The notes: generated by a model from the letters alone, not told the origin. A DNA stretch of 63,930 nt, filler included, from 4 parts of 4 records of this genome joined end to end with filler, not necessarily neighbours in it, one strand, 5' to 3'; positions 6,001-43,103 are shown, counted from the first letter of the whole stretch. Program-made: numbers and translations.

Positions 6001-6843
6001 GTGGATGGGCAGACCCAGGCACAACTGAGCAAACTTGCCCCGATCTTTGACGCTCTGGGTGAACGGGCTGTTGATCTGACCGTTTTGGGCAGCGGGGCGC
6101 AGGCCTCGGTCTGGCGCATTCGAACAGAGCGGGCTGACTACGCCTTGCGGGTGCTTAAACCCGGCGCACCGGGCCTTGGTCCAGCGGTCGATGCCAGATT
6201 GCGCAAGGCGCTGGTTGAAAATGGTGCTGCGGTTGTCCGTCCGGTATTGACCTCTGATGATGTGGCAACGCCCGAAGTATCTGCGCAATGGGTGTTGGAC
6301 GATTTTGTGGACGGGCGGCCCTTGTCCGGGCCGCTGACGATGCATCAAGCCGATGATTTGGGCCGTTCCCTATGGGTATTGCACAGTTTCGATCCTGATA
6401 GTTGGGCAGATATTCCTGCCAGCTTGCCAGTGGCTTTGTCTGTTTTTGGTGAGGGAGCCGGTGATCCCCGAATGGGCCGAGATATGGATCACTACCAAGT
6501 TTTGTTGGGCCGGACACTGACTGAGGAAAAGGCCTGTTTGGCGGTCTGTCATGGCGATTTACATGCGGATCAAGTGCTCCGAAAACGTGATGGCGGGATC
6601 GCGATACTGGATTTTGGTTTGGTGCGGCGCTGTGATTATCGTTGGGATCTGGCAGCGATTTTTCTGGCCTATGGACGGGACTGCCTTGGTGGAGTTTTAG
6701 CGGGCTACCAGAATAATACAAACGTTGATGACGTCCTGCCATTTGCGCAGACGATGGCCATTGCAGCACTGATGCGTGGCCGGGCCAAAGCAGCAGCGGC
6801 GCAGGCATTTCTGAACCAGCACCCCGTTCAGTTGGATACGTAA
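6001..6843 (+). CDS. Aminoglycoside phosphotransferase/choline kinase-like protein
   Basis: Kinase motifs LGSGAQASVW, CHGDLHADQV and ILDFG; GTG start 4 nt after pxpA. Confidence 0.7.
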   Translation: MDGQTQAQLSKLAPIFDALGERAVDLTVLGSGAQASVWRIRTERADYALRVLKPGAPGLGPAVDARLRKALVENGAAVVRPVLTSDDVATPEVSAQWVLDDFVDGRPLSGPLTMHQADDLGRSLWVLHSFDPDSWADIPASLPVALSVFGEGAGDPRMGRDMDHYQVLLGRTLTEEKACLAVCHGDLHADQVLRKRDGGIAILDFGLVRRCDYRWDLAAIFLAYGRDCLGGVLAGYQNNTNVDDVLPFAQTMAIAALMRGRAKAAAAQAFLNQHPVQLDT

Positions 6844-9815
6844 CCTGCGACCACCTGCAACAGCTTGTACGCGGTGCCAGCGTCACTGCCGACCACATCA
6901 AGGAATTCTTCGCCGCCAATGCGCAGACAGGTTAATTCGGTCTTGGCCCGCATGTCCAAGGCACGGGGCACATTGCGGATCAGGCCCAGTTCTCCAACCA
7001 ATGCGCCGGGGCCGGAGGTCGTGATCAGCAGATCATCCTCACCGTCGCGGGGCAGCAGCAAATCCGCCTCGCCGTCGATCACCAGATAGGCACCTGATGT
7101 TGGATCGTCGTCCTTGTGAAACACATACTCGCCCGGCTTGGCCTTGTACCACCGCGCCCCAAACGCCAACAGGCGCAATTGCTTGCGGGCCAGACCAGAG
7201 AACAGATCGGTTCCTTCTATCGCCCGCAGTTTACGCGCCAGATCGGCGCTGACGGTGCTGTCTTCATCCTGCGGGGCGGCGCTGGCGATGGATGAAATCC
7301 GGCCTGCCTGCATTTCGTAAACGGCTGTGAAATCGTCCGTATTCTCAAAGCTGGGCGCAAGACAGATGAGGGTTGTGCGTGGCAAGAGCGCCCGCAGCTT
7401 CTGTGGCAGGATGTTACGCGTCTCGTCGTCAAAACTGGCCAGTACCCCATCAAGGATCAGGATGTGTGGCCGCTTGATCGTGGCGCGGCTGATTGCAAGG
7501 GATTCCGTGAGCAAGGCAGGCAGGTTGCCACCGCCCAAGGTCAGCGGCATTTCAAAAATGAGGTCCAGTACAAGACCGTCCAGACCCGCCTTTCGCAGGA
7601 TGTCGCCGATCAGATCACGCAACTCATCCGCCTTGGACCCGGCGCTGGCCACGATCCGGCCATAGAGCGCGTTTTCCAGCACAGTAAGGCCTGCGACCGG
7701 CGCATCGGCATCAATCGGGCTAAGCAGATCGGCCATGCTGGCTTGCAATTGCGCGCCATGCTCCTTGCGGATTTGCAGCACGCGGGTGGTGATCTCTTCG
7801 GGGAAAGCGGTGCCGAGTTTGTCGGCGGAAATGACAAAGGTCACTGCCAAAAGCCGCGCCTTTTCTTCGCGTTCAAGTTGACCGCCGTCTTGATGTTTGG
7901 TCAGCAATGCGACCGCATTTTCGTAGGTTTCAGGATCAAGGCCAAGCTTGCGGAACATCGGGTGATCGGTGCCATCCAATCCAAAGATCTGGCGCAGAAG
8001 ATCAACGATATCGGCGGCGAGTTGCAGCAGATCCGCTTCCAGATGCAGCTCTTCGAGCAGGTTCAGGAACTGCGCCTGTTCGAGCAGGTTTTCCGCAGTG
8101 ACATGATTGCGCGATGTGGCAAATAGCATGTTTTCGGCAACCGGCAGGCTGGGATTGAACAGATCCTCGCGAAAGAAATAAACAGCATCGCGCAGGCCGG
8201 CATTTTGAACCGCTGTGTCAACCTCAGGCCGGAGCGCGACCAATGCGCGGGCCAGTTTGATATGGTCCGTCGCATTGATCCGCTGTTCGACCCCGCGTTT
8301 GAACAGGGCCTGATCAATGCCCATCCCGGTGATCAGCTCTAGCCACCAGGACCGCAGATCTTCGGGCGAAACTGTCTCTTCGATGTCGTGCCAATCGGCC
8401 TCCAACGGATCTGTGCTGTTGCCCGCCCGTGCGCTTTCTGCTGCTGTTTCATCGTGTTCAGCGCCCGGTTGCAGTTTCAGGGGCAGCATGACGTTATCGC
8501 CAAAGCTGCCGAGGAACATCACCGGGCGCGATGTGGCGTGGCCGATGCGTTTGGCGATTGTTGCCTGATGCAGGGCGGAGAGTTCCAGATCGCCAACGGT
8601 GATCTTGCCCGATGACGGGATAACCTCGCGGACCAGCACCTCTGCCAAGGCGCGGCGGTCTTCGTCGCTGGGGGCTGTGATGGCGATGGAAGTGCCGCCT
8701 TCAAAGGTGACGTTAAGATCTTCGAGCACCGGATTTCCATCGGCATCCTGCACGTTGACGCCGTGCAATTTGACGGTGCCTGCAAGATCCTCAAGCTGTT
8801 CTGGATAGCCATCAAACAGATCTTCGCGGATCATGCCCTGAGGGGCAAAACGTTCGGTGATGGTTTCCCATCGCAGGGCCATATCCTGTGACTGGTTGTA
8901 ATAGGCCAGCAGTTCTTTCCACGGGCTCGACAGATCTTTGTAGGCTGCCAAGGCTGCAACAAGGGCGCCCACCGTGATCTCACCCTTGATCGCGAGGTAT
9001 CCGCCAAGAGCATAGAAAAAGAACGGCGTCAGCTGCGAGATGAAGTTGTTGACGAACTTCATAAAGAACTTCTTTTGAAAGATCTCAAACCGGATCGCGA
9101 AAAGCCGCCCGAGCCGCGATGAGATCATCGCAAGGCGATAGCGCCAGCCGCCGTTCACGCGCAGGGTGCTTGCCCCCGCAGAGCTTTCGCCGATTTCCGA
9201 GGCCAGCGCCCGCAACTGGATCACCCGTTTCTTGTTTAGCTTGTTCACTTGGCGCTGTAATTTGGGGATCAGCCACGCCTGAAGTGGGATGAATGCACAG
9301 GCGGCCAGACCAAAAGTGAAACTTTGTAGAAACAAGAAGCCCAGGATGGTCGCCATCTGGCCTGCTTGCAGTACGGGCTGTGCAACCGCATCCCCCATCA
9401 GACCGCCCATTGGTTCGGATTCAGATGTGACCATCGAAACCAGTTCACCCTGGCTGGTGCGCTCAAAATAAGGGGCGGGGAACCGCAGGATACGGGCAAT
9501 CAAGGTATAGCGCAGCCGCCGCAGAAGGCGTTCGGCCAGCACCCCTTTCATCGTGTTGATCCGCATTTTCATGATGCCATGACCAAAGACGGACAACAAA
9601 AACAGCCCGCACAGGAACATCAGGAACGGCACCTGCTGCATCTCGTAGCCATAGACAGTGACCGGGCCGCCAGCGCCAATGGCATCATTGATGATCCGCT
9701 TTGGCAGTTCCAGCGTCAGGTAAAGCAATGGAAACAAGGTCAGCGTCACGGCCAGCAGAATCAGCTGGTCGCGTTTGGAGTATTTCCAGATGAAACTGAA
9801 CAGCGTGCGTTCGAT
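6828..9815 (-). CDS. ABC exporter-type membrane domain + degenerate, interrupted NBD + C-terminal cyclic-nucleotide-binding domain
   Basis: N-terminal ABC membrane domain (LLRRLRYTL..., ITVGALVAAL); NBD remnants; CNB motif GEYVFHKDD...GALVGELGLI...PRALDMRA. The track start is GTG 9749, but the frame is open further upstream and a start near ATC 9815 is suggested. Confidence 0.85.
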   Translation of the reverse strand: MERTLFSFIWKYSKRDQLILLAVTLTLFPLLYLTLELPKRIINDAIGAGGPVTVYGYEMQQVPFLMFLCGLFLLSVFGHGIMKMRINTMKGVLAERLLRRLRYTLIARILRFPAPYFERTSQGELVSMVTSESEPMGGLMGDAVAQPVLQAGQMATILGFLFLQSFTFGLAACAFIPLQAWLIPKLQRQVNKLNKKRVIQLRALASEIGESSAGASTLRVNGGWRYRLAMISSRLGRLFAIRFEIFQKKFFMKFVNNFISQLTPFFFYALGGYLAIKGEITVGALVAALAAYKDLSSPWKELLAYYNQSQDMALRWETITERFAPQGMIREDLFDGYPEQLEDLAGTVKLHGVNVQDADGNPVLEDLNVTFEGGTSIAITAPSDEDRRALAEVLVREVIPSSGKITVGDLELSALHQATIAKRIGHATSRPVMFLGSFGDNVMLPLKLQPGAEHDETAAESARAGNSTDPLEADWHDIEETVSPEDLRSWWLELITGMGIDQALFKRGVEQRINATDHIKLARALVALRPEVDTAVQNAGLRDAVYFFREDLFNPSLPVAENMLFATSRNHVTAENLLEQAQFLNLLEELHLEADLLQLAADIVDLLRQIFGLDGTDHPMFRKLGLDPETYENAVALLTKHQDGGQLEREEKARLLAVTFVISADKLGTAFPEEITTRVLQIRKEHGAQLQASMADLLSPIDADAPVAGLTVLENALYGRIVASAGSKADELRDLIGDILRKAGLDGLVLDLIFEMPLTLGGGNLPALLTESLAISRATIKRPHILILDGVLASFDDETRNILPQKLRALLPRTTLICLAPSFENTDDFTAVYEMQAGRISSIASAAPQDEDSTVSADLARKLRAIEGTDLFSGLARKQLRLLAFGARWYKAKPGEYVFHKDDDPTSGAYLVIDGEADLLLPRDGEDDLLITTSGPGALVGELGLIRNVPRALDMRAKTELTCLRIGGEEFLDVVGSDAGTAYKLLQVVAGYVSN

Positions 9816-9957
9816 GGGGCAGATCCAATGTAGAGGTGAAACAAAAGGACTTTGAAAATCATCAACTTCAGAGTCTTAACAACTCCGGGGCGCTAAAATC
9901 AATTGATTTGCAGCTTTCGCAGGTTGCGTTAGGATCAAGCCCTGAGGGAGGACGTGC

Positions 9958-10347
9958 GTGACCGCAGAGCTTCAAACCGCTTTGCTCCTGCTGCTTTTGC
10001 TGGAGATCAAACATCTGTTTGCGGATTTTTTTCTGCAAACGCCGCGCATGTTGTCCGGTCGCGGGCAGTACGCTCATTTGGGTCGGGCGCAACATGCGGG
10101 GCTGCATGCAGCATTTTCTGTCTGTGCGCTGTTGATCTGCGGTGCTCCGCTGGTGTTTGTTGTCATCCTTTGTCTGGCGGAACTGGTTGTGCACTACCAC
10201 ATTGATTGGGCCAAAGGGGTGCATTCAGACAAGACCGGATATACGCCCACCGATCCGGGGTACTGGCGGGCCTTCGGGGTCGATCAGTTTTTGCACCAGC
10301 TTACTTACATTGCGATGGTCTGGGCTTGGACGGTCTTTACGCTCTGA
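9958..10347 (+). CDS. DUF3307-like small membrane protein
   Basis: Pattern HLFADFFLQ / HAGLH / HYHIDWAK / DQFLH; RBS GAGGGAGG. Confidence 0.75.
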   Translation: MTAELQTALLLLLLLEIKHLFADFFLQTPRMLSGRGQYAHLGRAQHAGLHAAFSVCALLICGAPLVFVVILCLAELVVHYHIDWAKGVHSDKTGYTPTDPGYWRAFGVDQFLHQLTYIAMVWAWTVFTL

Positions 10348-12055
10348 CGGCTTTTGCTGCGAAGTTCGGCACCGGCTCGGCATAGCCTTTCAGGGCGATT
10401 GGTGCCAAAGTTTCAAATGCAACGCCGTCCAGATCGCCGCTGGCATCGCGGGTCGCCTGATCCAACAGAACCTGCCCCGGATCGGCCTTTGAACAGAGCC
10501 GCGCAGACAGGTTCACCGTGGAACCCAAAACGGTGAAATCCATCCGTTCTCGGGCACCCATGGCACCAACAACCACTTCACCGGATGCGATGCCAATGCC
10601 GACATGCAGGTTGTAGTCGGGAAACTTCATCAACAGATCTTGCATCGCGCTGGTGATTTTCACCGCACATTGCACCGCGCGGGTCTCCATTTCGTGGCCT
10701 TCAAATACCGCAACAAGGGCGTCACCGATGAACTTGTCAACATCGCCCTGATGTTCTTCGACGATGTCGGTTTGGACATCAAAATACTGGTTCAACGCTT
10801 CAATCACGACTTCGGGCGGCACGCGTTCGGAAAACTCTGTATAGCCGCGAATATCGGTGAAAATGACAGAGACCCGCCGCCGTTGCCCGCCGCGTGACAT
10901 GCCCGCCTCATGCGATCCCTGAATGGCGTTCATGGTGCCGTGGCTGACAAATTTCATCAGCTCCAACCGTTCGCCCAGATGGCCGATCATCTGGTTGATC
11001 CGGTGAGACAGGTCACCGATTTCATCGCGCGAATTTACGTTTTGCACACGGGCGCTGAAATCACCGCCACCGACCTTTTCCGCCACGCTGCCAATCTCAA
11101 GGATGGGTTTGGTCAGTCGCCGGGCAAAGATCAATGCACCCACACTTGCAATCGCAAAGCCCAGAAGGCCAACAATCAGGATCTGTTCTGTGATCGCATT
11201 CACCACGCCGTAGGCTTGATCCTCGCTTTGTTCGGTCACCACGGCCCATGGAAACCGATTTGGAAAGGCATAAGCGCCCAGCATTTTGGTGCCATCCGTG
11301 CGGGTATAGCCTTGCAAGGTGTCGGCTCGGGCGTTTGCCGTGATCAGGGGCATCGCAGAACGGACCAAAGACCGGTCTTTCAACGACACAGGCTCTGCTG
11401 TCAGAACCGTTTGCCCTTGCGGATCAATCACAGAAATTTCCCCACGCGCCGAGAACGGGTGATTTGCTACCAGCGCCGCCATAGACGCAAGATTGATCTT
11501 GGCGGCGAAAGTCACCTCGCGACCCGCGATCTTGGTTTCCAGCGGCAGGGCAATGGTTGCGATCCAATCGCCGGTCGCGTCCAGCTGATCAATCAGCGGT
11601 TTGCCATAGGCGCCGCGCGCCCGCAGATCAGCCAGAAGTTCTGGAGAGGTGCTGAGCGTGGTGACGGGGTCAAGACCCGCCGCATCAAGCCGCTGGGCAA
11701 AGCCCTGGTCCGGGGCAAGGATTGGCAATTTTGATCCGTCGATTGCCAGTTGCAGGGCGACCACCTGTGGCAGTTCCTGTATGCCCAGTGTCAGCAAGGA
11801 CACCTTTTGTTGCACGTCAAGATCGGGGCTGTCGATGCCGTTGCGGATCACCTGAAGCGGAGAAAGCCAACGGCCCTGAAATTCGTTGTCGAAGGCGCGG
11901 CGCAGTTGGCTGGCAACGGCGGTCAGATCTTCGTTGGCGGCGCTTTTTAATTCGTCGCGTGTCAGCTTGGTCAGGTTCTGGCCAACAATGGCCAGCGGAA
12001 GAACGGCAAGCAACGTCGCAAAGAGGAAAAATTTGATGCGTAATGGAAATCTCAT
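10337..12055 (-). CDS. Membrane class III adenylyl cyclase (TM, periplasmic Cache-like sensor, TM, HAMP, cyclase)
   Basis: FTDIRGYT, VDKFIGDAL and DFTVLGSTVNLSARL retain the metal-binding Asp pair, ATP-specifying Lys/Asp and Asn/Arg; HAMP motif RDEIGDL. Confidence 0.92.
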   Translation of the reverse strand: MRFPLRIKFFLFATLLAVLPLAIVGQNLTKLTRDELKSAANEDLTAVASQLRRAFDNEFQGRWLSPLQVIRNGIDSPDLDVQQKVSLLTLGIQELPQVVALQLAIDGSKLPILAPDQGFAQRLDAAGLDPVTTLSTSPELLADLRARGAYGKPLIDQLDATGDWIATIALPLETKIAGREVTFAAKINLASMAALVANHPFSARGEISVIDPQGQTVLTAEPVSLKDRSLVRSAMPLITANARADTLQGYTRTDGTKMLGAYAFPNRFPWAVVTEQSEDQAYGVVNAITEQILIVGLLGFAIASVGALIFARRLTKPILEIGSVAEKVGGGDFSARVQNVNSRDEIGDLSHRINQMIGHLGERLELMKFVSHGTMNAIQGSHEAGMSRGGQRRRVSVIFTDIRGYTEFSERVPPEVVIEALNQYFDVQTDIVEEHQGDVDKFIGDALVAVFEGHEMETRAVQCAVKITSAMQDLLMKFPDYNLHVGIGIASGEVVVGAMGARERMDFTVLGSTVNLSARLCSKADPGQVLLDQATRDASGDLDGVAFETLAPIALKGYAEPVPNFAAKAVRA

Positions 12056-12103
12056 GCGCGCACCTTAGAGCAGAAAACAGGCTCTGAATATGGGCTATCT
12101 GCC

Positions 12104-12143
12104 TGCAACGCGCCGCAACGGTTTGACCGCTGCGGCGCGTGCA
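12104..12143 (-). terminator. Strong GC stem-loop between PKD gene and cyclase
   Basis: TGCA-A-CGCGCCGCAACGGT-TTG-ACCGCTGCGGCGCG-TGCA; no clear U-tract on the minus strand. Confidence 0.5.
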
Positions 12144-12147
12144 AAAA

Positions 12148-15100
12148 TCAGTTGCGCGGCAGGGCTGTCACGATCGCGGTGTCACGGCCAACCCCACAGG
12201 CCAGTCCGGTTGTATCGCGTGCCTCGACCGTCACGGTATAGGTGCCGGGTGTTGCATAGCGATGCCGCGTTACCGCGCCTGTGCCGGTGGTCCCGTCGCC
12301 GTAGCTCCACCGCAGGTCGAGCCCTTGGCCATCCGCATCAGAAGCGTTGGATGCGTCAAAATCAGCAACATCGTGGGCCGCGCCCAGTTTTGTTGTGATG
12401 TCCGGCCCGGCATCGACGCTGGGTGTGTGATTGACCAGAACCGCAGCGCGGTCTGTTCCGGTGCCGCAGGTTAGGCCACTGTTGTCGGTCACAACCAGAT
12501 CAACGGTGACAGGACCAGCGGTGTCAAAGCTGCGTTCGACGCGGGGGCCGGTCAGGGTGACGCCATCGCTGAACTTCCACTCGAACTGTTCAATCAACCC
12601 GTCCAGATCACCAGATGCGCCCGCATCAAAGACGGTCACATCGCCAGGGCAGACCACGCGGTCCGGTCCGGCCAGCGCGGTTGGTGCGGAGTTGACCCGC
12701 ACATAACGTTCCTCGCGGCGTAGGCTGTTGGCGAGGTTTTTGCCGTCATCCAATGCCACGCTCACCGGGTAAAGACCCGGATTGGCAAACTGGTAGGACA
12801 CGTTGGCCCCTTCGGCGCGTACACCTGTGTCACCAAAGATCCATGCCACCTCGGTGCCCGATGGCACATCCACAGCCCAGGGCAATTCCACGGCGGGGCA
12901 GATCCATTGCGGCGCTTCGAGATCGGCAACCGGCGCGGGGTTCACCACGACTTCATGTTCGCGGGTGACGCGGCTGTTGCCGACGCCTGCGTCATCCGTC
13001 ACGGTCAAAGCCACGCGGTAGGTGCCGGCTTTCGCAAAACGGTGGGCGGGGCGCAGACCTTCGCTGGTGTTGCCGTCACCAAAGTCCCAGGCGTAGTTGA
13101 TGATCACGCCATCTGCGTCTTTGGAGGCGCCCGCATCAAAGATCACCGCCTCACCTGCAGCCATGGATTGCGGACCCTTGATATCGGCGGCCGGTGCCTC
13201 ATTGACCACAACCTTGCGGGTTGTCTCGATGGTGCTGCATCCTTGATTGCCGCCTGAAAGCTCGGTCTTCAGGGTCGCAAAATAGACGCCGGGTGTTTCG
13301 AAGATGTGCGATACCTCGGCCCCTTCTGCGGTTGCTCCATCGCTGAAGCTCCACTGATGGGAGGTCACAGAAGCCCCCTCAAGATCGCTGAGATCAATCG
13401 AGAAATTGGCGGGCATTCCAGCGGCGGCGCGTTCAGAGCCGACGATGGCCTGCGCAGGGGCTGCGACAACCTCAACATTCACGGTGTCGGTGTCCAGCGG
13501 GCTGCAAGCCCCCAAAGCTTCGCCGGTGATGGTCAGGTTGACCACGTAATTGCCCGGTTTCTTGAACCGGTATTCAGGGCGTTCACCGCTGGCGGTTCCG
13601 CCATCGCCAAAGGTCCAGGCAAAGGAGTTCACAGCGCCATCCGCATCGGTCGATCCAGAGCCATCAAAGCGCACGGCCTGATTGGTGCAGACGGTCATGT
13701 CCTCCCCTGCGTCAGAGATCGGCCCTTCGCGGATCAGGGCGGCGATACGGTCCACCGCGGTGCCCCAGTCGGTGCCGGTACCATTGCGCACGGTCAGGGT
13801 GACCGGATAGGCGCCGGGCTGTTCGTAGGTCTTGGACGGGTTCACCAGATCGGAGGTTTCGCCATCGCCGAAGTCCCAGGAATACAGCAGCAAACTGCCA
13901 TCTGGGTCGGAGCTGTCTGAGGCGTCAAACAGGATCGGCTGGCCGGAACACACATCCTTGTTGCCGCCTGCCACCGCAATCGGGCGGGTCTTGATCGTGA
14001 CAACCGTGGTATCGATGGCCTTGGCGTTTTTCAGGCCGGTGCCGTCATTGACGCGCAGGGTCACGGGATAGATGCCGGATTTTTCGTAAACATGGGTGAC
14101 CTGCACCCCTTCCATCGGGGCAGAGCCGTCACCGAAGTCCCAGACATAAATCAACGCATCCCCATCCGCATCCGAAGAGGCCGATCCGTCAAAGGAGACC
14201 TGCAACACCTCAGTATCAAGGCGCGGTCCGGCTTCGGCCACCGGCGCGTGATTGACCCGAATGGTCAGATCATCGGTATCTGTGGCGTTGGTCACGCCGC
14301 TGTCATCGGTCACGACCAATTGCGCGGACCAGACGCCGGGGGTGTCATAGGTGCGTTCAAACGTGGGAGCGGCGACAGGATCAACGCCATCGTCAAATTC
14401 CCACATGTAGCTGATGATCTCACCGTCCGTGTCGTAGGACAAACCGCCGTCAAAGCGCACCGGGTCTCCCGGCGCGACCAGCATATCGGCACCCGCTTCG
14501 GCCACGGGGGCAGCGTTAACGGTGATCAGTGTCTCGGCGGTGTCTGCCGCCGGACCACCGGAAAAGCCGTCTTTGACCGTCAGGCCAAACCGGTAGAGGC
14601 CGGGGCTGGCCAAGGCCACAGCAATGCGCTCGGCGGATTGGGTTGTGCCGTCTGGAAGTGACCATTCATGGGTGCTGATCCGGCCATCTGGGTCCAGCGA
14701 GGCGCGGCCAGAAAGGATGAACTCCTCATTCGGGGCCACAGTCAGTGGCGGACCTGCATCGGCGATGGGCGTGGCGTTGATCGTGATCGTCGTTGTGGCG
14801 CGGTCCACGTTCAGTGGCGCGGTGCTTTCGTCGCGGACGACCAGGGCAACTTCATAGATGCCGGGCCGTGCATAGGCGTGCACCGGGGTCGGCCCGTTGC
14901 CGGTTTGGCCATCGCCAAAGTCCCATTCGTAGGATGTAATGCCACCTTCGGGATCGAATGATCCGGTGCCATCAAACTGCACTTCGCTGGCGGTGACAAA
15001 TTGCGCCGGACCTGCGTTTGCCGTCGGGGCGGCATCAATCACGATCTGCTTTTCGATCTTTTGTATGGCCGAGGCTGTGCCGCTGTCATCCGTCACGGTC

Positions 15101-16995
15101 AGGGTCACGGTGTAGACCCCCGGTGTGGTCCAGGCGTATTCGACAGTCTCGCCATCCCCCAGCGCGCCATCGCCAAAATCCCACATGTAGGACAGGATCG
15201 ACCCATCGGGATCAACGCTTGCTTCGGCAGAAAGCTGGGCCGCTTCGGAGACAGAGACAGGGCGATCGGGAATGGTGAACATCGGCTCAGGCGGCGCGTT
15301 CACAACCACGATCAGTTGATCCCAGTCATAGTTGTTCTCGACGCCGCTGTCGTCTTTGACGGTCAGGGTGGCATAGTATGTGTCAGGCTTGGTGTAGGTG
15401 TGGCTGATCCGGGCACCTTCGATGATTGTGCCGTCGCCCATGTCCCAGACATAGGTCTTGAGCGCCCCGTCCACATCATAGCTGGCGCTGGCATCAAACA
15501 GCAGGGTTTGGCCGGTCTCGGCGGTTTGATCAGTGCCTGCCTCGGCCACAGGGGCAAAGTTGACGGTGATCAGACGGGTTTCTACGCCAAAGTTACAGGG
15601 GTGATCGCTGTTGTCTTCGACGCGCAGGTTGCTGCGGTAGGTGCCGGGTTTGTCATAGGTCTTTTCGGCATAGCTGCCAGCCGCGCCGGTGCCATCGCCA
15701 AAGCTCCAGATGTAGCGGCTGATCGGGCTGTCCGATGGCTCTGAGGTTGAACCGTCAAAGGGCACAACCTGACCGGGGGCGACTGTGACCGGATCGCCGG
15801 GTTTGGCCGTAGGGCCAGACCGGACATGCACGGGCACGGCAACGCTGGACCCGCGGCCCGCACGGGTGCCTTGTTCCATCACCTTGAGTGTCGCGGTGTA
15901 GCGGCCCGGCGCATCATAGCGGTGCGCGATCACGGATTGATCGGCGGTTTTGCCATCGCCAAAGTCCCAGATGTAGCTCAGCGGCACCCGCCCTTGCGAG
16001 GGGCTGGCGTCAAACGCCACGGCGCGGCAATCGGCGAGCGGGCTTGCGGTTCCTAGGGCGGTTGGACGGGCCGGATCAAGCGCTTTGACTGGCGGCATTT
16101 GCAGGCCGACGGCGGCGCCGTCCTTGTCAAACACCGAGACGGTCACATCATTGGGGGTTTCAAACCCGCCCTTAAGGCTCAGCGCCAATGCGCCGGTTTC
16201 CGGTGTGGCGCTGTCGATGGACCAATAGTTTTGGCCTGAAATCTGCAACGGGATATCGGTGTAGTCGGTCACAAAGGTCAAATCACCCTTGGCACCATCA
16301 AAGTTTTGTACTTTGAACGGTCCCTGCGCTGCGGGGTCCACGGTCACACGGGTGGCGGATGTGCCTGCGCTCCACCGGATGGTGGGTTGATAGGCAAACA
16401 TCGACAGGTCTTTGGGCGCACGGTTGCGGTCGCGCACGGTGCTGACGGCAACAGAGAACCCGTTGCCATCGTTGCCTGCGGTGCCATCCACATCAATGCG
16501 GAAATAGGCGCGACCATTCATGATCTCGCCCTGACGGGCACGCACGGTGCCCAGTGTCACCCAGCGGCCATCGGTGCCTTTGTCATAGCCGTATTCGGAC
16601 TGCGCCAATACCTTGCCGGGATCTGTTGCCAGTGTTGAAATCCGGGCGGGGCGTTCGCGTTCCTGCACCATGGCGGGGCGCGTTGCGCCGGTGAAGGCAC
16701 CTTCGCCGCCCATGATACGATAGGTCGTCAAGGAATCGCGCGGCCCGCCATAGGTGAAATCATCATTGCCGCTGGTTTCGGGGTCAAAGAGGCGCACATA
16801 GACACGGCCGGGCGTGTTTTCGGGAATGGAGAACAGGATCTGCTCGCGGTGATCCACGTCGCCTTCGGAACTGGGCGCAGAGACCCCGTAGACCACCAGC
16901 AGGCTGGCGGTATCAGCGGTGGTTTGGGCGCTCAGCGGCAGGGCAAACGCCGTGAGGGCGCTGGCAGCCAATGTGATGCGTTTCATCCAGTTCAT
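12148..16995 (-). CDS. Exported 1615-aa protein with 15 tandem PKD domains
   Basis: Sec signal (..ALPLSA/Q); 15 WDFGDG-like motifs, each followed by a H.Y..PG.Y.V.L.V-like segment; RBS GGAGGA. Confidence 0.9.
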   Translation of the reverse strand: MNWMKRITLAASALTAFALPLSAQTTADTASLLVVYGVSAPSSEGDVDHREQILFSIPENTPGRVYVRLFDPETSGNDDFTYGGPRDSLTTYRIMGGEGAFTGATRPAMVQERERPARISTLATDPGKVLAQSEYGYDKGTDGRWVTLGTVRARQGEIMNGRAYFRIDVDGTAGNDGNGFSVAVSTVRDRNRAPKDLSMFAYQPTIRWSAGTSATRVTVDPAAQGPFKVQNFDGAKGDLTFVTDYTDIPLQISGQNYWSIDSATPETGALALSLKGGFETPNDVTVSVFDKDGAAVGLQMPPVKALDPARPTALGTASPLADCRAVAFDASPSQGRVPLSYIWDFGDGKTADQSVIAHRYDAPGRYTATLKVMEQGTRAGRGSSVAVPVHVRSGPTAKPGDPVTVAPGQVVPFDGSTSEPSDSPISRYIWSFGDGTGAAGSYAEKTYDKPGTYRSNLRVEDNSDHPCNFGVETRLITVNFAPVAEAGTDQTAETGQTLLFDASASYDVDGALKTYVWDMGDGTIIEGARISHTYTKPDTYYATLTVKDDSGVENNYDWDQLIVVVNAPPEPMFTIPDRPVSVSEAAQLSAEASVDPDGSILSYMWDFGDGALGDGETVEYAWTTPGVYTVTLTVTDDSGTASAIQKIEKQIVIDAAPTANAGPAQFVTASEVQFDGTGSFDPEGGITSYEWDFGDGQTGNGPTPVHAYARPGIYEVALVVRDESTAPLNVDRATTTITINATPIADAGPPLTVAPNEEFILSGRASLDPDGRISTHEWSLPDGTTQSAERIAVALASPGLYRFGLTVKDGFSGGPAADTAETLITVNAAPVAEAGADMLVAPGDPVRFDGGLSYDTDGEIISYMWEFDDGVDPVAAPTFERTYDTPGVWSAQLVVTDDSGVTNATDTDDLTIRVNHAPVAEAGPRLDTEVLQVSFDGSASSDADGDALIYVWDFGDGSAPMEGVQVTHVYEKSGIYPVTLRVNDGTGLKNAKAIDTTVVTIKTRPIAVAGGNKDVCSGQPILFDASDSSDPDGSLLLYSWDFGDGETSDLVNPSKTYEQPGAYPVTLTVRNGTGTDWGTAVDRIAALIREGPISDAGEDMTVCTNQAVRFDGSGSTDADGAVNSFAWTFGDGGTASGERPEYRFKKPGNYVVNLTITGEALGACSPLDTDTVNVEVVAAPAQAIVGSERAAAGMPANFSIDLSDLEGASVTSHQWSFSDGATAEGAEVSHIFETPGVYFATLKTELSGGNQGCSTIETTRKVVVNEAPAADIKGPQSMAAGEAVIFDAGASKDADGVIINYAWDFGDGNTSEGLRPAHRFAKAGTYRVALTVTDDAGVGNSRVTREHEVVVNPAPVADLEAPQWICPAVELPWAVDVPSGTEVAWIFGDTGVRAEGANVSYQFANPGLYPVSVALDDGKNLANSLRREERYVRVNSAPTALAGPDRVVCPGDVTVFDAGASGDLDGLIEQFEWKFSDGVTLTGPRVERSFDTAGPVTVDLVVTDNSGLTCGTGTDRAAVLVNHTPSVDAGPDITTKLGAAHDVADFDASNASDADGQGLDLRWSYGDGTTGTGAVTRHRYATPGTYTVTVEARDTTGLACGVGRDTAIVTALPRN

Positions 16996-17032
16996 CGTCT
17001 TCCTCCATCCCTCAGGCGCAGCGCCCGAGAGG

Positions 17033-19369
17033 TCATTTGAATGCCGTGTTCCCGGCGTAGTCTTCGACGGCCACTTCGATCAGTTGGATCTGGCCGGTTT
17101 CGGGTGGCAGGCTGGCGCGGCAGATGCCTGCGCCGCTGTCGCAGCGCAAAAAGCCGTCCCGCTCCGCGCCGCCGATCTCAAGCAGATAAGTCGCAGATTT
17201 GCGCAGCCCGCTTGGGTCGGTTGCGACCACTTCGATGGTGATTGGCCCGGCGTTGCCCTCGGGGCGGGTCACTTCGGCGCGGGTGATCACGGGCGGGTCA
17301 ATGTCATAGACCGTTTGCAAGCGCACAGCAGTAACATTGCCAACAGCATCGGTTGCCAGAAGGTCAAAATCGTTGATGCCGGGTTGCAGTTCGGTTGCGA
17401 TATTGAATGTTCCGTCAGTAACCGCGATCGGCTGCCCATCAAGGGTCAGGTTGACCGCATCCCCAGCCGTGCCCGTGATCTCAAGGTCAGGATTATCCGT
17501 GGCCTTGGGCAATGGCAGATCAAGTTTGACTTGGGGTGGCATTTCATCGCGCAGGGCAAAGAAATCAGCGCGGCCTTCGGATTTGCCGTTGGGGGCAAAA
17601 ATCTCGATCTGGTAGCCTTGGATCTCGGAGGTGGCCGGGACGCTAAACGAGACTGCACCCTGCGGCCCTGTAACGGCCTGAACCACAACAGCGCCCGAAG
17701 CGTCTATGACAACAACCGGCGCGTCCGGTTGCGCGGTGGTCGCAGCGCGGACCACCAATTCATCAGACCGCGTGGCGAAAGCATCCCCTGCGCGGGGCAT
17801 CGCCGGATCAAAGGCGATCTCAACCGCAACAGCGGGGCGGTAAATGACGGTCTGACCAAGGTTGCTTTGGTTTCCGGCCAGATCTGTCGCATCAAGGCGC
17901 AGCAGGTTCTCGCCCACATTCAGGTTCACTTCGGTTTCAAAGCTGCCGTCCTTGTTCAACGTCAGCGGCGCACCGTTCAACAGGACTTTCGCCTCGGGCT
18001 CGGATGCACCAAACACAATGATCTTTGGTTCCTCGAATAGCGCCCCGTCACCGGGGGCAAGCAACGTCAGGAACGGCGGTGTGTTGTCCCGGCGCACGGT
18101 AAAGCCTGCGGGTTTGCTCCATTGTCCAGGCAGTCCCAATTGATCCAGCGCGGCAACCCGCCAGAAATAACGGGCAGGGGGCAGATCGGGCGTGGTAAAG
18201 GCAGTATCGGCGATGCCCCATTCGCTGACCTGCATTTCGTTAAACCCGGCGTCGCGGGCAACCTCGATCCAATAACCAGCAGCGCCATCAAAACCGCCCC
18301 AACCCAGATCAACCGCACTGGAATACAAGATTTCATTGTCGTCTGGCTTGCGAAGAACAGGGCTTTCCAACACATCGGCGGTCTGTGCGCCGTTTCGGTT
18401 CAGAACGACGCCTTCATTTTCGCCAATCACAATTGCGGTGTCGCCCTGTTTGACCTCAAGACTGGCCTCGTCATAGTTCACAAACTTGGCGCCGCTGCGG
18501 TCGTTCTTGACCCAGAAATCGGAACTGTCGGTTTTGGTTTCCACACCTGGAACGTCGATCTCGAAGGCAGTTTTGTCCGACAATTGGTTGAGAACCGCGT
18601 AAAAATCGCCATCAACCAGCGAGACCTTCGTCACTTCATCCCCGGTCAGCGGATCGGAACGCATACGCTGGATCGTGGCGTTGGAATTGGCGTTCAATCG
18701 CAGGCGCGACAGATCGCGAAAGGTGATCTGTGTCGTGCTGGCCGACAGGGTGCGGACGCGTTCAAATTCGATCAGAATGTCGTTGAGGCTGCGGCCGGAC
18801 CAGCGCGGCTCTGCCGGAGCGCGGCCCTGCACGTCGCCTTGAACATCGGACACAACCGCTTCGGCGGATCGGTCGCGTTGGGCAATCGCGATCTCAAGCG
18901 CCTCTTGCGCCAGCAGGGTGGCGATGTCGGACAGATCAATGACTTCGCCCCACTGATAGGTCTCACGCCGTTCCAGCGCGGTTTCGCGGCTGGCGACGGC
19001 ATTGCCGATCTGAACCGGCGCAAAAACCTGCGCACCCTCAGCCGTTGCCGTCTGGATGGTGTTAAGCGCCTCTTGCAGCGCTTCGTCTGCCGCGCGGACC
19101 TGTTTGACCGGCATCTTGAGCGTGTCGTTGGGCCGCAGATCGGTGGGCGTTGCGATCTCGTTCAGCTCAAGCACGTAGGGCCAAAGATCAGGATCACCCA
19201 AGTGCCGCCCGACAAAATCACGGATCGTGTCGGCAGAGGTGAATGTGATGTTTTCGAACTCAAGCGTTGCGCTGCGCGTTTGGCTCAAGGCTGGCTGAAC
19301 CGCCAGTCCTGATGCAAATGCACTGGCAAAAACAAGGCCGCGCAGAATATGTCGGACAGTACAAATCAA
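17033..19369 (-). CDS. Exported LysM-like + FecR + FN3 + Ig-like multidomain protein
   Basis: Signal peptide; LGDPDLWPYVLELN..LRPNDTLKMP (LysM-like); VRTLSASTTQITFRD..LVDGDF (FecR); YFWRVAALD..GQWS (FN3); D.xPP-started Ig repeats. Confidence 0.82.
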   Translation of the reverse strand: MICTVRHILRGLVFASAFASGLAVQPALSQTRSATLEFENITFTSADTIRDFVGRHLGDPDLWPYVLELNEIATPTDLRPNDTLKMPVKQVRAADEALQEALNTIQTATAEGAQVFAPVQIGNAVASRETALERRETYQWGEVIDLSDIATLLAQEALEIAIAQRDRSAEAVVSDVQGDVQGRAPAEPRWSGRSLNDILIEFERVRTLSASTTQITFRDLSRLRLNANSNATIQRMRSDPLTGDEVTKVSLVDGDFYAVLNQLSDKTAFEIDVPGVETKTDSSDFWVKNDRSGAKFVNYDEASLEVKQGDTAIVIGENEGVVLNRNGAQTADVLESPVLRKPDDNEILYSSAVDLGWGGFDGAAGYWIEVARDAGFNEMQVSEWGIADTAFTTPDLPPARYFWRVAALDQLGLPGQWSKPAGFTVRRDNTPPFLTLLAPGDGALFEEPKIIVFGASEPEAKVLLNGAPLTLNKDGSFETEVNLNVGENLLRLDATDLAGNQSNLGQTVIYRPAVAVEIAFDPAMPRAGDAFATRSDELVVRAATTAQPDAPVVVIDASGAVVVQAVTGPQGAVSFSVPATSEIQGYQIEIFAPNGKSEGRADFFALRDEMPPQVKLDLPLPKATDNPDLEITGTAGDAVNLTLDGQPIAVTDGTFNIATELQPGINDFDLLATDAVGNVTAVRLQTVYDIDPPVITRAEVTRPEGNAGPITIEVVATDPSGLRKSATYLLEIGGAERDGFLRCDSGAGICRASLPPETGQIQLIEVAVEDYAGNTAFK

Positions 19370-36634: not shown

Positions 36635-37231
36635 ATGGCTGGACATTCAAACTATGTACCGCAGAGCGCTCCGGCAAAGTGGCTGGAAAGCCGCCTGCCG
36701 GTCATCTCGCTCGTTCGCGGCTCTTTTGTTGATTTCCCGACGCCGAAGAACCTGAACTACTGGTGGACCTTCGGTGGCATCCTGTTCTTCGTGCTGATCG
36801 CGCAGATCATCACCGGCATCGTGCTGGTGATGCACTACACGCCAAGCACCGATGCAGCCTTCAACAGCGTCGAGCACATCATGCGCGACGTGAACTTCGG
36901 CTGGATGCTGCGTTACCTGCATGCAAACGGCGCGTCGATGTTCTTCATCGCCGTGTACATCCACATCTTCCGTGGTCTTTATTACGGTTCTTACAAGGCG
37001 CCGCGCGAGATCTCCTGGATCCTCGGCGTGATCATCTTCTTGATCATGATGGGCACCGCCTTCATGGGCTACGTGCTGCCGTGGGGCCAGATGTCCTTCT
37101 GGGGCGCAACGGTTATCACCAACCTGTTCTCGGCCATTCCGCTGGTCGGCGAAGAAATCCGCACCTGGCTGTGGGGTGGTTTTGCGGTCGACAACCCGAC
37201 CCTGAACCGCTTCTTCTCGCTGCACTACCTG
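36635..37231 (+). CDS. petB: Cytochrome b, 3'-truncated
   Basis: [21 protein letters not shown] and [18 protein letters not shown]. Confidence 0.97.
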
Positions 37232-37331
37232 NNNNNNNNNNNNNNNNNNNNNNNNNNNNNNNNNNNNNNNNNNNNTTAATTAATTAANNNNNNNNNNNNN
37301 NNNNNNNNNNNNNNNNNNNNNNNNNNNNNNN
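37232..37331. other. Artificial contig spacer
   Basis: N44-TTAATTAATTAA-N44; sharp GC drop across it. Confidence 0.98.
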
Positions 37332-37696
37332 CAGCTTTAAACAGCTGGCTTTTTTGCGTTTGGAAATATTTATATTTTTAGCTAATCACTCCTTTTAGGA
37401 GATTAGCCTACTATTGGTATCGGTAGACGCCCTCCTCTTGAAATAGTAGGGTTATGAGCAGGCCTAGGTTATATCTCAAAAAATTACAGACAGTTCTTAT
37501 GCTTGAATATTCAGCCAAATTTGTAATTAACTTCAGATGATATTATTGCAATTGAAAATTGTTAAAAATATTAGGGTAAGTTTCACTCTACAATCAGTCC
37601 ACTACAATGATTTGACTACGCAGTGAGGGGGTAGTTCAGAATTTACTATATATTAGTTTTAATGCATGTGCTGAATAAAATTTTAATTAATCTCAT

Positions 37697-38044
37697 ATGT
37701 TTGATCTAAATGGGAATAGGATTTTTATTTGTTTGACTAGTGTTCTAGTTTTTGTTTCATGTGATAATTGCAAATTTCAAAACAGAAGAAATATGAAAGC
37801 ATATTCTGGAGTAGTACTTGAAAAGAATTTTTATAATTGGGATAGAGGTGTGAAAGACATTATTATTGAAAGTGGAAATGGTGATTTAAAGTATTATTTC
37901 CCAACAAGTCCTTTGTATGACGACTTTTGGGATAAAATACTTGTGGGAGATTCAATCAACAAACCATATAACGATTTGAATTTTTCAATTTACAGAAATG
38001 GAGAATTGGTAGAACATATGGACCTATATTTCGATTGTAACTAA
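37697..38044 (+). CDS. Hypothetical AT-rich protein, possible lipoprotein
   Basis: 115-aa ORF with hydrophobic stretch ending LVFVSC. Confidence 0.55.
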   Translation: MFDLNGNRIFICLTSVLVFVSCDNCKFQNRRNMKAYSGVVLEKNFYNWDRGVKDIIIESGNGDLKYYFPTSPLYDDFWDKILVGDSINKPYNDLNFSIYRNGELVEHMDLYFDCN

Positions 38045-38073
38045 TTTGGATTAGGTAGCCGTCTCATTTATTT

Positions 38074-38129
38074 AAAGCCCTATAATTAATGATGTGCCCC
38101 CAAAATCTAGACACTTATTTGGGCATTTT
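38074..38129 (+). repeat. Dispersed ~55-60 bp repeat, copy A (IS3/IS150-end-like)
   Basis: AAAGCCC..ATAATTAATGATGTGCCCCCAAAATCTAGACACTTATTTGGGC aligns with the reverse complement of 43604-43664. Confidence 0.6.
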
Positions 38130-38262
38130 GGTTTTATAGAGGTTTTTTAACTTAAGTAAATATCAATCGCAATAGTAGGAAATTGACAGCATGATGATTT
38201 AAAGAAAGAGATTGATTTTTTTATAAGTCAAGGCAGAGTTCATCCCTGGCTTAATGGGATTT

Positions 38263-38709
38263 CTACCAAATCCTAAACTGTCCGAAGTGATGTTTAAAAT
38301 GTTTGGGATGAAACTTTTCCCACTCTGAATAATTCAATTTTCCAAATCTTGGATGTATGGAGCTGGCGTCAGGGCTTGAATTAAAAAATGTAGTATACCC
38401 AGTTAAGCTCTCAATGAGTTGTTTTTTTGCTTCATCTAAGCTACTATTTCTTAACGGGAGTAATTCCCCTGCCTTCATATTAGGAGCTAAAACACCTCGT
38501 GGAAATTCCATTGTAGAATCTAATAGAGCTCTCTTTTGAAATAACTGTTTTTCACTTGGTTCAAATTCTGGAATCTTTATTCTGCCGTATGATATCTTGA
38601 CTGTAAGCGTAAGATGTTCTACCATATGTTGTGGAGTCATTATCCCGAATTCTGCCTTAGTATTAGCTTCTAAGGCTTTTAATTTGTTCTCTATCGATGT
38701 TATATCCAT
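38263..38709 (-). CDS. DinB/DUF1569-like protein
   Basis: FGIMTPQHMVEHL ... HPRFGKLN..EW..FH.KH..HHF.QF. Confidence 0.75.
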   Translation of the reverse strand: MDITSIENKLKALEANTKAEFGIMTPQHMVEHLTLTVKISYGRIKIPEFEPSEKQLFQKRALLDSTMEFPRGVLAPNMKAGELLPLRNSSLDEAKKQLIESLTGYTTFFNSSPDASSIHPRFGKLNYSEWEKFHPKHFKHHFGQFRIW

Positions 38710-38791
38710 GTATGGGTTCTTTGGGTTATAAGTTATAAAAAAAGCGTGTGAGACTTCAAACGCTTTCTTGGTGATTATTGAACTTTATCTT

Positions 38792-41191: not shown

Positions 41192-41230
41192 TTCTTTGGG
41201 ATTTTTAGGTTGATGGAAAAGTTGGGTTAA

Positions 41231-42211
41231 TTAAAAGTCTTCACCAATGGAGAATCTTGGTGAATCGTCTGATCCTTCATTAGATTTCATTACTCCGGCT
41301 TTTTGGTAGTCTCCAACTCTTTTCTCAAAGAAATTGGTTTTACCCTGAAGCGAAATCATATCCATGAAATCAAAAGGATTCGTGCTATTCCATATTTTAT
41401 CGCACTCTAATTCGTCTAATAGTCTATCTGCTACAAATTCAATGTACTGACACATCAGGTCAGAGTTCATTCCTATAAGTCGTACAGGAAGTGCATCAGT
41501 TACAAATTCCTTTTCGATTTCTACAGCATCTCTGATTATTTCTCTTACCGTCTCTTTTGGCAATTGATTGTTAAGATGCTTTGTGTATAGGTGACAGGCA
41601 AAATCGCAATGCAATCCTTCGTCACGGGAGATCAATTCATTGGAGAAGGTAAGTCCGGGCATCAGGCCTCTTTTCTTGAGCCAGAAAATAGAGCAGAATG
41701 ATCCTGAGAAGAAGATGCCTTCCACCGCAGCAAAGGCGATTAATCGCTCTTGGAAGTTGCCATTATCTATCCATCTCAATGCCCAGTCCGCCTTTTTCTT
41801 TACACAATCAATATGCTCAATAGCATGTAATAGCTTGTCCCGCTCAGCTGCATCTTTGATATAGGTATCTATAAGAAGACTGTAAGTTTCTGAATGGATG
41901 TTTTCCATCGCAATCTGGAAGCCGTAGAAAAATTTTGCTTCTGTATATTGAACCTCTGATACGAAATGCTCTGCCAAATTCTCATTAACAATCCCATCAC
42001 TAGCTGCAAAAAATGCTAATACGTGTGAGATAAAATGACGCTCACCATCATTTAATGCTTTCCAATCCACCATGTCCTGTCCCAGGTCAATCTCCTCAGC
42101 AGTCCAAAAGCTAGCCTCGGCTTTCTTATAATACTGCCAAATGTCGTTGTGCTGGATAGGGAATAAAACAAAGCGATTCTTATTCTCTTCTAGTATTGGT
42201 TCGTTCTGCAT
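41231..42211 (-). CDS. nrdB: Ribonucleoside-diphosphate reductase beta subunit
   Basis: [23 protein letters not shown] and KTNFFEKRV. Confidence 0.97.
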
Positions 42212-42755
42212 TGTTACTGTAGTGTTTAAGCGTATTAATTTTTGCCCCTAAATGAATAAATAGTTTGTCCGGGGATAAGAAAGGCTGCCTTTTTAGAACA
42301 GCCTTTCAACAAATATGTGAATCAAAATTGGGAAATAAAACCTGTGAAGTGTCTGTTTAAGGTCATTTCTGACCCGAGGTCAAAAAGTATATAGCGATCA
42401 TATATACAAATAGTTAGGTTGGTTTAAATATACTTTTTGATTAATTGAATGGGCTATTATCGGGGGTTTGAAAAAAAATCAAATAATTGCAAAAAAGATT
42501 TTCAACCAAAATTCAAGGCAATTTCTGACTTTTGGTCAATATTTTCGTGATATTAATTTTACTATTCAAAATTATGATCCTCAATCAGTTGGAGGTAAAA
42601 TCAGAAAAAAAATTTAATTCATTTTTAAGTTTAATTGTCTTTTATCGTGGAAATTTTATGTTGTTTTTTAAGTAAATGAGGGCGGGTGGCAAAGTTTCAA
42701 TATAAAACGCAAATAATATTTCAGAAGCCAGTTTTTTTCTTCCAATCAACTTCCC

Positions 42756-42763
42756 TATATTTG
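42756..42763 (+). promoter_or_regulatory. Bacteroidota -7 promoter element for rplU-rpmA
   Basis: TATATTTG matches TAnnTTTG, 28 nt before the rplU ATG. Confidence 0.65.
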
Positions 42764-42791
42764 CACTCCGATTTCAAAAGAATCAAGAACT

Positions 42792-43103
42792 ATGTACGCA
42801 ATTGTAAACATCGCAGGAAAGCAGTTCAAAGTAACGCAAGATCAGTTTATCTATGCTCCAAAGCTAGATTTAGAAACTGGCGCTTCCATCGACTTCGACC
42901 AGGTACTATTAGCTGAGGCTGATGGATCTGTGTCTGTAGGCGCTCCCCTATTGGCTGGAGCGAAGGTATCTGGGAAGGTCCTAGATCATGTAAAAGGTGA
43001 TAAAGTCATCGTCTTCAAAAAGAAGCGTCGTAAAGGCTACAAAAAGAAGAACGGTCACAGACAAGATTTCACCAAAGTTTTGATAGAAAGTATTACACTC
43101 TAA
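42792..43103 (+). CDS. rplU: 50S ribosomal protein L21
   Basis: [14 protein letters not shown]...KKKRRKGY...GHRQ. Confidence 0.98.

Follow-up and report, generated by a model that had tools for sequence, protein, structure and literature searches.

Periplasmic proteins that combine LysM and FecR domains (COG4254) are encoded beside CHASE2 sensor kinases in the 'BiofilmReg' operon of Burkholderia and in the PA4035-type pair of Pseudomonas aeruginosa (PMC5192318), and in the Campylobacterota the gene of a CHASE2 adenylate cyclase is found in one cluster with those of a phosphodiesterase, a TPR protein and an outer-membrane protein bearing a FecR domain (PMC9239204). In the CyaD1/CyaD2/CyaK-Clr cascade of Sinorhizobium meliloti, the FecR-domain protein SMc02177 is a target of Clr and is dispensable for the perception of the signal (PMC5498481). 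Here we analyse a window of 63,930 nucleotides (four parts of four records of one genome joined end to end, filler included), whose high-GC part is Sulfitobacter mediterraneus DNA, its cyclase having 99% identity to proteins recorded under that species' name and to the one on a contig of strain DSM 12244 (L009). The locus of interest occupies positions 6828-19369 and holds five genes: a trio encoding an exported FecR-domain protein, a long PKD-repeat protein and a membrane-bound class III adenylate cyclase, and a pair encoding a DUF3307 protein and an ATP-binding cassette (ABC) exporter-like protein fused to a cyclic-nucleotide-binding (CNB) domain, called ABC-CNB below. The reading we favour, at about even odds (a probability near 0.5), is that the trio is an envelope-sensor operon that talks, by means of cyclic AMP (cAMP), to the DUF3307/ABC-CNB pair, trio and pair being two conserved modules.

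The likeness to the COG4254 pairs lies in an exported FecR protein encoded beside a membrane sensor, with no extracytoplasmic function (ECF) sigma factor and no TonB receptor. Unlike in those pairs, however, the sensor here has a Cache-like domain, HAMP and a cyclase output in place of CHASE2 and a kinase, a PKD protein of 1615 amino acids (aa) is encoded between the two, and the FecR protein carries some 350 extra Ig-like residues and a LysM segment that is weak. In the Campylobacterota cluster, too, a class III cyclase of the membrane goes with an envelope protein that has a FecR domain, and one pathway was proposed for them, whereas here there is no phosphodiesterase or TPR gene and the sensor domain is another one, the PKD protein and the ABC-CNB/DUF3307 pair having no counterpart in that cluster. 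The Sinorhizobium cascade shares with our locus the presence of alphaproteobacterial receptor-type class III cyclases and a periplasmic FecR-domain protein in one regulatory circle; its effector is the transcription factor Clr, whilst here the candidate for that role is a membrane protein and no neighbouring gene is of the CRP type. With the FecA-FecR-FecI system the locus shares the periplasmic FecR domain (PF04773), but no ECF sigma factor or TonB-dependent transducer is nearby and a signal peptide replaces the cytoplasmic anti-sigma domain. As the preliminary description of this DNA, made from the sequence alone, had remarked, ECF sigma factors, TonB receptors and CRP-type regulators are all absent from the open reading frames (ORFs) of positions 3453-24917.

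For the pair, the nearest described system is HetC of Nostoc, a CNB-linked ABC exporter assigned to the peptidase-ABC exporter family PCAT (PMC10986499). NCBIfam also has a model, TIGR03896 ('cyc_nuc_ocin'), which by its name covers CNB proteins associated with bacteriocin transport. Exporters of the PCAT family are in general working ATPases that export peptides. The CNB-linked systems resemble ours in having a type IV ABC exporter fold together with a CNB domain, fused or encoded by a neighbouring gene, and differ from it in that ABC-CNB has lost its ATPase motifs, bears an insert of about 245 residues in its nucleotide-binding domain (NBD), has its CNB domain at the C-terminus and lies near no peptide or peptidase gene. 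The earlier remark that no characterised system is built in this way held up: a full-text literature search found nothing on either module, including FecR-adenylate cyclase-PKD or PKD-cyclase combinations in Roseobacter, nothing on the wider family of ABC-like and CNB proteins treated below, and for DUF3307 nothing beyond one phage genome study, judged by its title.

Roseobacters are key marine heterotrophs and algal associates with many receptor-type cyclases, and we know of no signal or target assigned to these enzymes. The trio would be a well-defined instance in which a receptor that makes cAMP is joined by accessory proteins of the envelope, and would extend the theme of LysM-FecR proteins with sensors, so far known from gene neighbourhoods alone. 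Should ABC-CNB truly bind cAMP, an ATPase-dead ABC-like protein with a cyclic-nucleotide sensor would add a new type to the second-messenger effectors of the membrane.

Trio and pair as two conserved modules

All five ORFs lie where the preliminary description had placed them, with the spacing it gave. On the minus strand are the genes of the FecR protein (17033-19369, 778 aa), the PKD protein (12148-16995, 1615 aa), the cyclase (10337-12055, 572 aa) and ABC-CNB (6828-9749, 973 aa when counted from the GTG at 9749), and on the plus strand that of the DUF3307 protein (9958-10347, 129 aa). Gaps of 37 bp (FecR/PKD) and 92 bp (PKD/cyclase) separate the genes of the trio, and the convergent cyclase and DUF3307 genes overlap by 11 bp at their 3' ends.

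A scan with a cyclase alignment, taking one genome per species, gave 80 loci with 10-kb flanks; proteins orthologous to the cyclase are on record from Ruegeria pomeroyi and Phaeobacter gallaeciensis also. Wherever the upstream flank reached 7.4 kb or more, as it did in 72 loci, the FecR gene and then the PKD gene lie upstream of the cyclase on the same strand, without exception, and the trio so defined spans the Roseobacteraceae, Paracoccaceae, Geminicoccaceae and unclassified Alphaproteobacteria, Amaricoccus, Paracoccus and Dinoroseobacter included; even a distant locus (L088), where the order is rearranged to cyclase-FecR-PKD, keeps the linkage. On the downstream side, 68 loci have at least 5.3 kb of DNA, and these carry both DUF3307 and ABC-CNB in 39 cases, DUF3307 only in 2 and neither in 27. 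The co-occurrence expected of all five families by the preliminary description is thus found for the trio and not for the five together, and its single complete path is not borne out: the five genes are two independently conserved modules, the trio (FecR, PKD, cyclase) and the pair (DUF3307, ABC-CNB), each of which also occurs alone. DUF3307 is paired divergently with ABC-CNB and lies outside the transcription unit of the cyclase. This divergent arrangement is seen in all 39 adjacent loci, and it is kept by the ABC-CNB orthologue in 15 of 19 genomes where that gene lies away from the trio or where the trio cyclase was not found.

Absence of the pair from the downstream flank does not always mean absence from the genome. 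A whole-genome search covered 28 trio genomes (26 without the pair downstream and 2 with too little downstream DNA) and three controls with the pair adjacent; a full-length ABC-CNB was found elsewhere in 17 of the 28, at 47-63% identity, and a distant relative only in 4. In a family sample of 151 genomes the cyclase orthologue is present in 10, and the DUF3307-type ABC-CNB in nine of these ten against 7 of the 141 others, a comparison among related genomes which are not independent. On the cyclase tree the crown roseobacter clade shows the pair adjacent in 38 of its 48 rows and the Shimia clade in 1 of its 9, and the simplest reading of the history of this adjacency, as far as the tree goes, would be one gain followed by repeated loss.

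As an observation in its own right, about 270-400 nt separate the end of the ABC-CNB gene from that of its contig in seven of eight Shimia-type genomes (G050, G052, G053, G055, G057, G058 and G066), the exception being G065, where the distance is about 2 kb. Such contig ends suggest an adjoining repeat, for instance an rRNA operon or an insertion sequence (IS) element.

Relatives of ABC-CNB provide further neighbourhoods in which a link to cyclases can be looked for. Paralogues, one or two in each roseobacter genome examined (loci L101, L108-L111, L118, L119 and L128-L130; in the S. mediterraneus reference genome, G042:C5:170725-173658), are about 41-50% identical to it, those from the whole-genome search being at about 48-50%, have equally dead ATPase motifs and ATG starts, and have no DUF3307 or cyclase gene nearby. 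More distant relatives, at 29-37% identity, and one orthologue-level protein adjoin class III cyclases of other architectures: a CHASE2-cyclase together with DUF3307 (L135), ferredoxin-fused (Fer2) cyclases (L131, L134), a cyclase-AAA_16 protein occupying the DUF3307 position (L126) and short cyclases (L115, L120, L132, L134). A cyclase lies within the fetched stretch in 6 of 9 distant loci versus none of 10 paralogue loci, and chance adjacency should be rare because the reference genome has 13 cyclase matches in its 4.1 Mb. The distant type is part of a wider family: its ABC-like gene, whose product has about 900 aa and carries the NBD insert too, is matched in 138 of 401 sampled alphaproteobacterial genomes. 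In all 40 loci fetched from this family (L136-L175) a separate CNB gene follows within about 200 nt. The family seems to be an uncharacterised and widespread two-gene unit.

The cAMP link from the cyclase to ABC-CNB is plausible on these comparisons, and the 'complete signal path' is a hypothesis to which they lend moderate support. A number of points weigh against it, and most of them would follow as readily if the modules were functionally unrelated and merely inherited as neighbours, the trio feeding CRP-type regulators elsewhere and the pair heeding some other cyclase, or cGMP. Each module is found without the other, seven of the 28 trio genomes being devoid of any ABC-CNB at E<=1e-20 and seven of the 151 sampled genomes having the pair without the trio cyclase. 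Adjacency, limited to the 39 of 68 loci, occurs in none of the 11 basal rows of the cyclase tree and needs at least 10 changes on it, 7 of which are forced by well-supported branches, which amounts to loss at least 7-10 times over. Part of this adjacency may be plain synteny, because the flanking genes (metabolic ones or unrelated regulators) are themselves common to up to 19 of 34 loci, about half. In the wider family a cyclase is adjacent in only 3 of the 40 loci, all close kin of L115. Cross-talk is possible as well, because the reference genome has 12 CNB matches beside its 13 cyclase matches; these include two other sets (G042:C4:370824-372743 and G042:C10:2289-10480) in which no more than about 4 kb separates a class III cyclase gene from the gene of a small CNB protein the size of CRP. 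It should be added that the PKD and FecR proteins are putative inputs and might instead be outputs. What makes us regard the unrelatedness of the modules as rather unlikely, for all that, is that their adjacency persists over many genera, with cyclases differing by up to about 37%, that Jhaorihella-type loci keep DUF3307 at the cyclase even though ABC-CNB has been relocated, and that relatives of ABC-CNB independently adjoin cyclases of at least four other architectures.

The cyclase and its putative envelope partners

The cyclase is predicted to run from a first transmembrane helix through a periplasmic Cache-like domain (residues 28-290) and a second transmembrane helix to a HAMP domain (residues 310-360) and a class III catalytic domain (residues 393-557). 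Pfam gives Guanylate_cyc (PF00211) 76.3 bits against a cut-off of 21.9 and HAMP 50.7 bits; the Pfam search returned no CHASE2 in this protein and, instead, besides HAMP, a weak dCache_1 at 18.8 bits, under its cut-off of 45. Residues 391-565 align to CyaB of P. aeruginosa (3r5g) at E 5.8e-23 and also to Cya2 (2w01), and D401, D445, K441, T508, N515 and R519, all six invariant in 17 orthologues, match catalytic positions of CyaB. We take D401 and D445 to be the metal sites, K441 and T508 the substrate-defining residues and N515 and R519 those of the transition state, as is assumed for class III cyclases, and ATP is the predicted substrate because Lys and Thr stand at the substrate positions. 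Judged by these residues the protein is an adenylate cyclase with its catalytic residues intact, in agreement with the intact HAMP class III cyclase of the preliminary description. The likeness to CyaB is confined to the catalytic domain, where the metal, Lys/Thr and Asn/Arg positions correspond; at the input end CyaB carries MASE2, a membrane domain, whereas the input here is the periplasmic Cache-like domain with HAMP.

The FecR protein begins with a segment that reads as signal peptide-like, and contains a FecR domain at residues 204-294 (18488-18760, minus strand) with a Pfam score of 34.3 bits over a cut-off of 24, and an Ig-like beta-sandwich region at residues 430-778; Glucodextran_B is matched in two stretches (61.4 bits), and Big_6 and Big_13 both score under their cut-offs. 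It had been described as a LysM-FecR protein, of which the FecR half stands and the LysM half is tentative. Pfam gives no LysM in the first 140 residues at E<=5, and a profile of 70 orthologues, compared with the chains of the PDB, found seven matches with E between 0.003 and 0.77, all weak. Five of the seven are named LysM, peptidoglycan-binding or Kbp and align to profile positions 11-81, on which account the N-terminal segment (about residues 35-90, 19100-19267) may tentatively be called LysM-like.

The PKD protein starts with a signal peptide, continues with a head of two predicted beta-jelly-roll modules (residues 25-315, 16051-16923) and ends in 15 PKD repeats (12151-16050), all on the minus strand; the repeat count given for it earlier is confirmed by Pfam, which finds PKD_4 (PF18911) in 15 stretches with a total of 1024 bits. 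The repeats are mutually 24-48% identical (as measured on the 14 found by an anchor pattern). The longest plus-strand ORF of the fetched loci, taken as the PKD gene, is 1589-1682 aa long in 67 of 73 loci, and because the length of the protein is so constant the number of repeats seems to be fixed. The head has no Pfam match at all. Its AlphaFold2 (AF2) model (pLDDT 87.6) is all-beta, with two beta-sandwich or jelly-roll modules, and in Foldseek TM-scores are low (<=0.25); in a wider structural search the best matches, with Z<=7.6, were to carbohydrate-binding modules (CBM), pre-peptidase C-terminal (PPC) domains and GOLD-type sandwiches. No specific family or function can be given to the head, because these matches are middling and spread over many beta-sandwich modules. 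Homologues of the head form 620 representative clusters at E<=0.001, and the head was found in one of 400 other genomes of a phylum-wide sample. Pfam, run on ten distant homologues, recognised only TIG (P0235) and a borderline BlaR1 M56 region (P0268). In P0268 the homologue of the head lies C-terminal to that region, which scores 31.4 bits against a cut-off of 31; if the M56 match holds, the head is there an extracytoplasmic sensor module.

Put together, these features would make the trio an operon for a periplasmic LysM-like/FecR/Ig protein, a periplasmic or surface PKD protein and an inner-membrane cyclase, in which the FecR and PKD proteins may serve as accessory ligand- or wall-sensing partners of the periplasmic domain of the cyclase, a role modelled on the LysM-FecR proteins that are paired with CHASE2 sensors. 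A complex prediction for the FecR domain, the PKD head and the periplasmic domain of the cyclase scored 0.00 in two runs, made without controls or supplied alignments.

The PKD and FecR proteins might, on the other hand, be a co-expressed surface or periplasmic structure, such as an adhesin or a wall scaffold, or the cyclase might sense a small ligand alone through its Cache-like domain, and indeed it carries a domain of the ligand-binding type of its own. Adhesins and secreted enzymes commonly contain PKD and Ig repeats, the head resembles carbohydrate-binding and PPC modules, if only at the Z-scores just given, and in NCBIfam the FecR protein matches models for Leptospira adhesins and lipoproteins, in each case far under the cut-off. 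A mere structure of this kind would not, however, call for a gene order so strictly tied to the cyclase in all 72 loci or for a PKD protein of fixed length, and in other phyla LysM-FecR proteins are repeatedly paired with membrane sensors (PMC5192318, PMC9239204). As the head homologue of P0268 also sits behind a borderline BlaR1-type M56 sensor-protease region, we hold it quite improbable that the two exported proteins have no part in sensing.

ABC-CNB and DUF3307

The preliminary description presented ABC-CNB as an ABC exporter fused to a cyclic-nucleotide-binding domain. The fusion and the fold are confirmed; the word exporter is not. Residue numbers in this protein are counted from the GTG at 9749, that is, on the 973-aa form. 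Six long transmembrane helices (8790-9749) are followed by an NBD that a helical insert of about 245 aa (7680-8414) divides in two, and by the C-terminal CNB domain (about residues 855-973; 6831-7187), all on the minus strand. ABC_membrane (PF00664) is matched by Pfam at 73.5 bits and cNMP_binding (PF00027) at 51.2 bits, over a cut-off of 27.5 for the latter, and ABC_tran has no Pfam match at E<=0.01. The AF2 model (pLDDT 82.9, pTM 0.71) has a long-helix transmembrane domain, a split NBD and a C-terminal CNB domain, and its top Foldseek matches are ABCB1, PCAT1, TmrAB, TM287/288 and Atm1, with target-normalised TM-scores of about 0.5-0.55 for the last three. The insert, which stands between the Q-loop and the signature region, belongs to no known family in Pfam, and Atlas gives unnamed clusters for it.

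The ATPase motifs, in turn, are degenerate. In the alignment to exporters of the PDB the Walker A site falls on residues 357-368, ITAPSDEDRRAL, and reads APSDEDRR where solved exporters read GPTGAGKT; Walker B is ILILDG, with Asp then Gly and no catalytic Glu; the H-loop is CLAPSF, without His; and the signature is LGGGNL, or GGxNL in relatives, as against LSGGQ. Walker A, the catalytic Glu and the His of the H-loop are lost in all 16 aligned orthologues and paralogues. From these motifs we conclude that ABC-CNB is a protein of ABC exporter fold that cannot act as an ATP-driven pump by itself, and because they are dead the label 'exporter' is wrong as stated. In NCBIfam the ABC-CNB entry P0003 scores 96.9 bits against a cut-off of 853.3 for TIGR03796 and falls outside the bacteriocin-type exporters (TIGR03796/03797) that have a CNB partner of the TIGR03896 type; no NCBIfam model reaches its cut-off for the roseobacter ABC-CNB or the wider family, the CNB ORF of L115 attaining 42.8 against 161 for TIGR03896. 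The thought that ABC-CNB is a decaying pseudogene was rejected, given 52 distinct relatives that are 50-82% identical over the full length, with many invariant residues.

The wider family keeps the Lys of Walker A and a QRQ-type signature, its Walker B often being Ser-Glu, and because of this the roseobacter ABC-CNB may be regarded as a fused, duplicated and further degenerated branch of it. The same retention could be taken to favour another view, in which ABC-CNB is the degenerate half of a heterodimeric exporter whose competent half is encoded elsewhere, the CNB domain regulating ATP-driven export, and the best matches in sequence and fold do include heterodimers with one degenerate site (TM287/288, TmrAB and Rv1273c/72c). 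Such an arrangement is highly improbable, as at most one composite site could work (Walker A, the Glu of Walker B and the H-loop all being lost), all paralogues of the same genomes are equally degenerate, the signature of ABC-CNB itself has diverged too (LGGGN), and the neighbouring genes of the window include none for a canonical ABC half-transporter.

The CNB domain, by contrast with the ATPase sites, looks sound. Its phosphate-binding cassette, GELGLIRNVPRAL at residues 919-931, is conserved among orthologues, which keep the motif GELGLI...PRAL, the Glu being replaced by Asp in most paralogues; a cassette with Glu and Arg is, we take it, the motif of CAP-type domains. In our reading the cyclase would make cAMP and the CNB domain of ABC-CNB would read it, and the binding of cAMP, not of ATP, would switch the ABC-like protein, which would act as a membrane receptor or effector of cAMP and not as a pump. 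In this capacity ABC-CNB, possibly together with DUF3307, may change some property of the membrane or envelope.

The DUF3307 assignment made in the preliminary description is supported by Pfam (PF11750, 40.3 bits against a cut-off of 23), and the Atlas neighbours of this small membrane protein (P0004) are exclusively DUF3307 clusters. Among 61 distinct sequences, H19, D23, H40, H46, H50, E75, H79, D83, D109 and H113 are conserved in at least 95%, as are K18, R35, R43 and K86, and the six His, three Asp and one Glu of this set fit a metal-binding or catalytic membrane protein. At its most specific our proposal would have an ABC exporter fold turned into a device in which cAMP at the CNB domain, and not ATP, drives or gates the switching of the transmembrane domains, with DUF3307 as its membrane partner. 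The activity of the cyclase would be governed by two proteins that report on the envelope or on a surface in contact with the cell, namely the FecR protein, anchored to peptidoglycan, and the protein of 15 PKD repeats, whose length is fixed. In this full form we consider the proposal unlikely.

One claim about the gene of ABC-CNB had to be changed, namely its start. The reading frame is best begun at an ATC (9815-9813) that precedes the listed GTG by 66 nt, or 22 codons, so that the gene covers 6828-9815 on the minus strand and encodes 995 aa. The equivalent codon in 52 distinct relatives is ATA in 33, ATC in 13, ATG in 5 (four paralogues and L026) and TTG in 1; in L016 an in-frame stop stands immediately 5' of the ATA. 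Entropy over the 22-codon extension is, by codon position, 11.5, 6.3 and 26.3, which is the coding pattern of variation. On this comparison ABC-CNB has a conserved non-canonical AUA/AUC start, in the window as well as in loci L010-L129, which suggests a deliberately low or regulated translation and would be a natural case of non-canonical initiation kept long in evolution. Between this start and that of DUF3307 lies a divergent intergenic region of 142 bp (9816-9957), where a scan for promoters and terminators found sites no commoner than in shuffled sequence.

Surroundings of the locus

The genes that flank the five in the window encode carboxyltransferase subunits, LamB/YcsF, an APH-family kinase, a saccharopine dehydrogenase, a LysR protein and parts of an ABC importer.

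Farther on, a segment of low GC content extends from 37333 to 57000 and probably beyond, with a GC of 0.36-0.41 as compared with 0.56-0.62 around it. Over 19.7 kb it matches genome G001 at 99% identity, a genome which is of another lineage and shares nothing else with the window, and the segment is absent from the genome of S. mediterraneus DSM 12244. Its genes are of the housekeeping kind and include those of both ribonucleotide reductase subunits, a polyprenyl synthetase, RNase R, an aminotransferase, a DUF4421 protein and an aldehyde dehydrogenase, and a cytochrome b ORF (36635-37279) is cut off at its left junction. The segment has the look of a chimeric or contaminated assembly, or else of a transfer that took place very recently. 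Within it, at 49866-49983, lies a repeat of about 100 nt, of which some 35 diverged copies, 71-86% identical, are found in G001.

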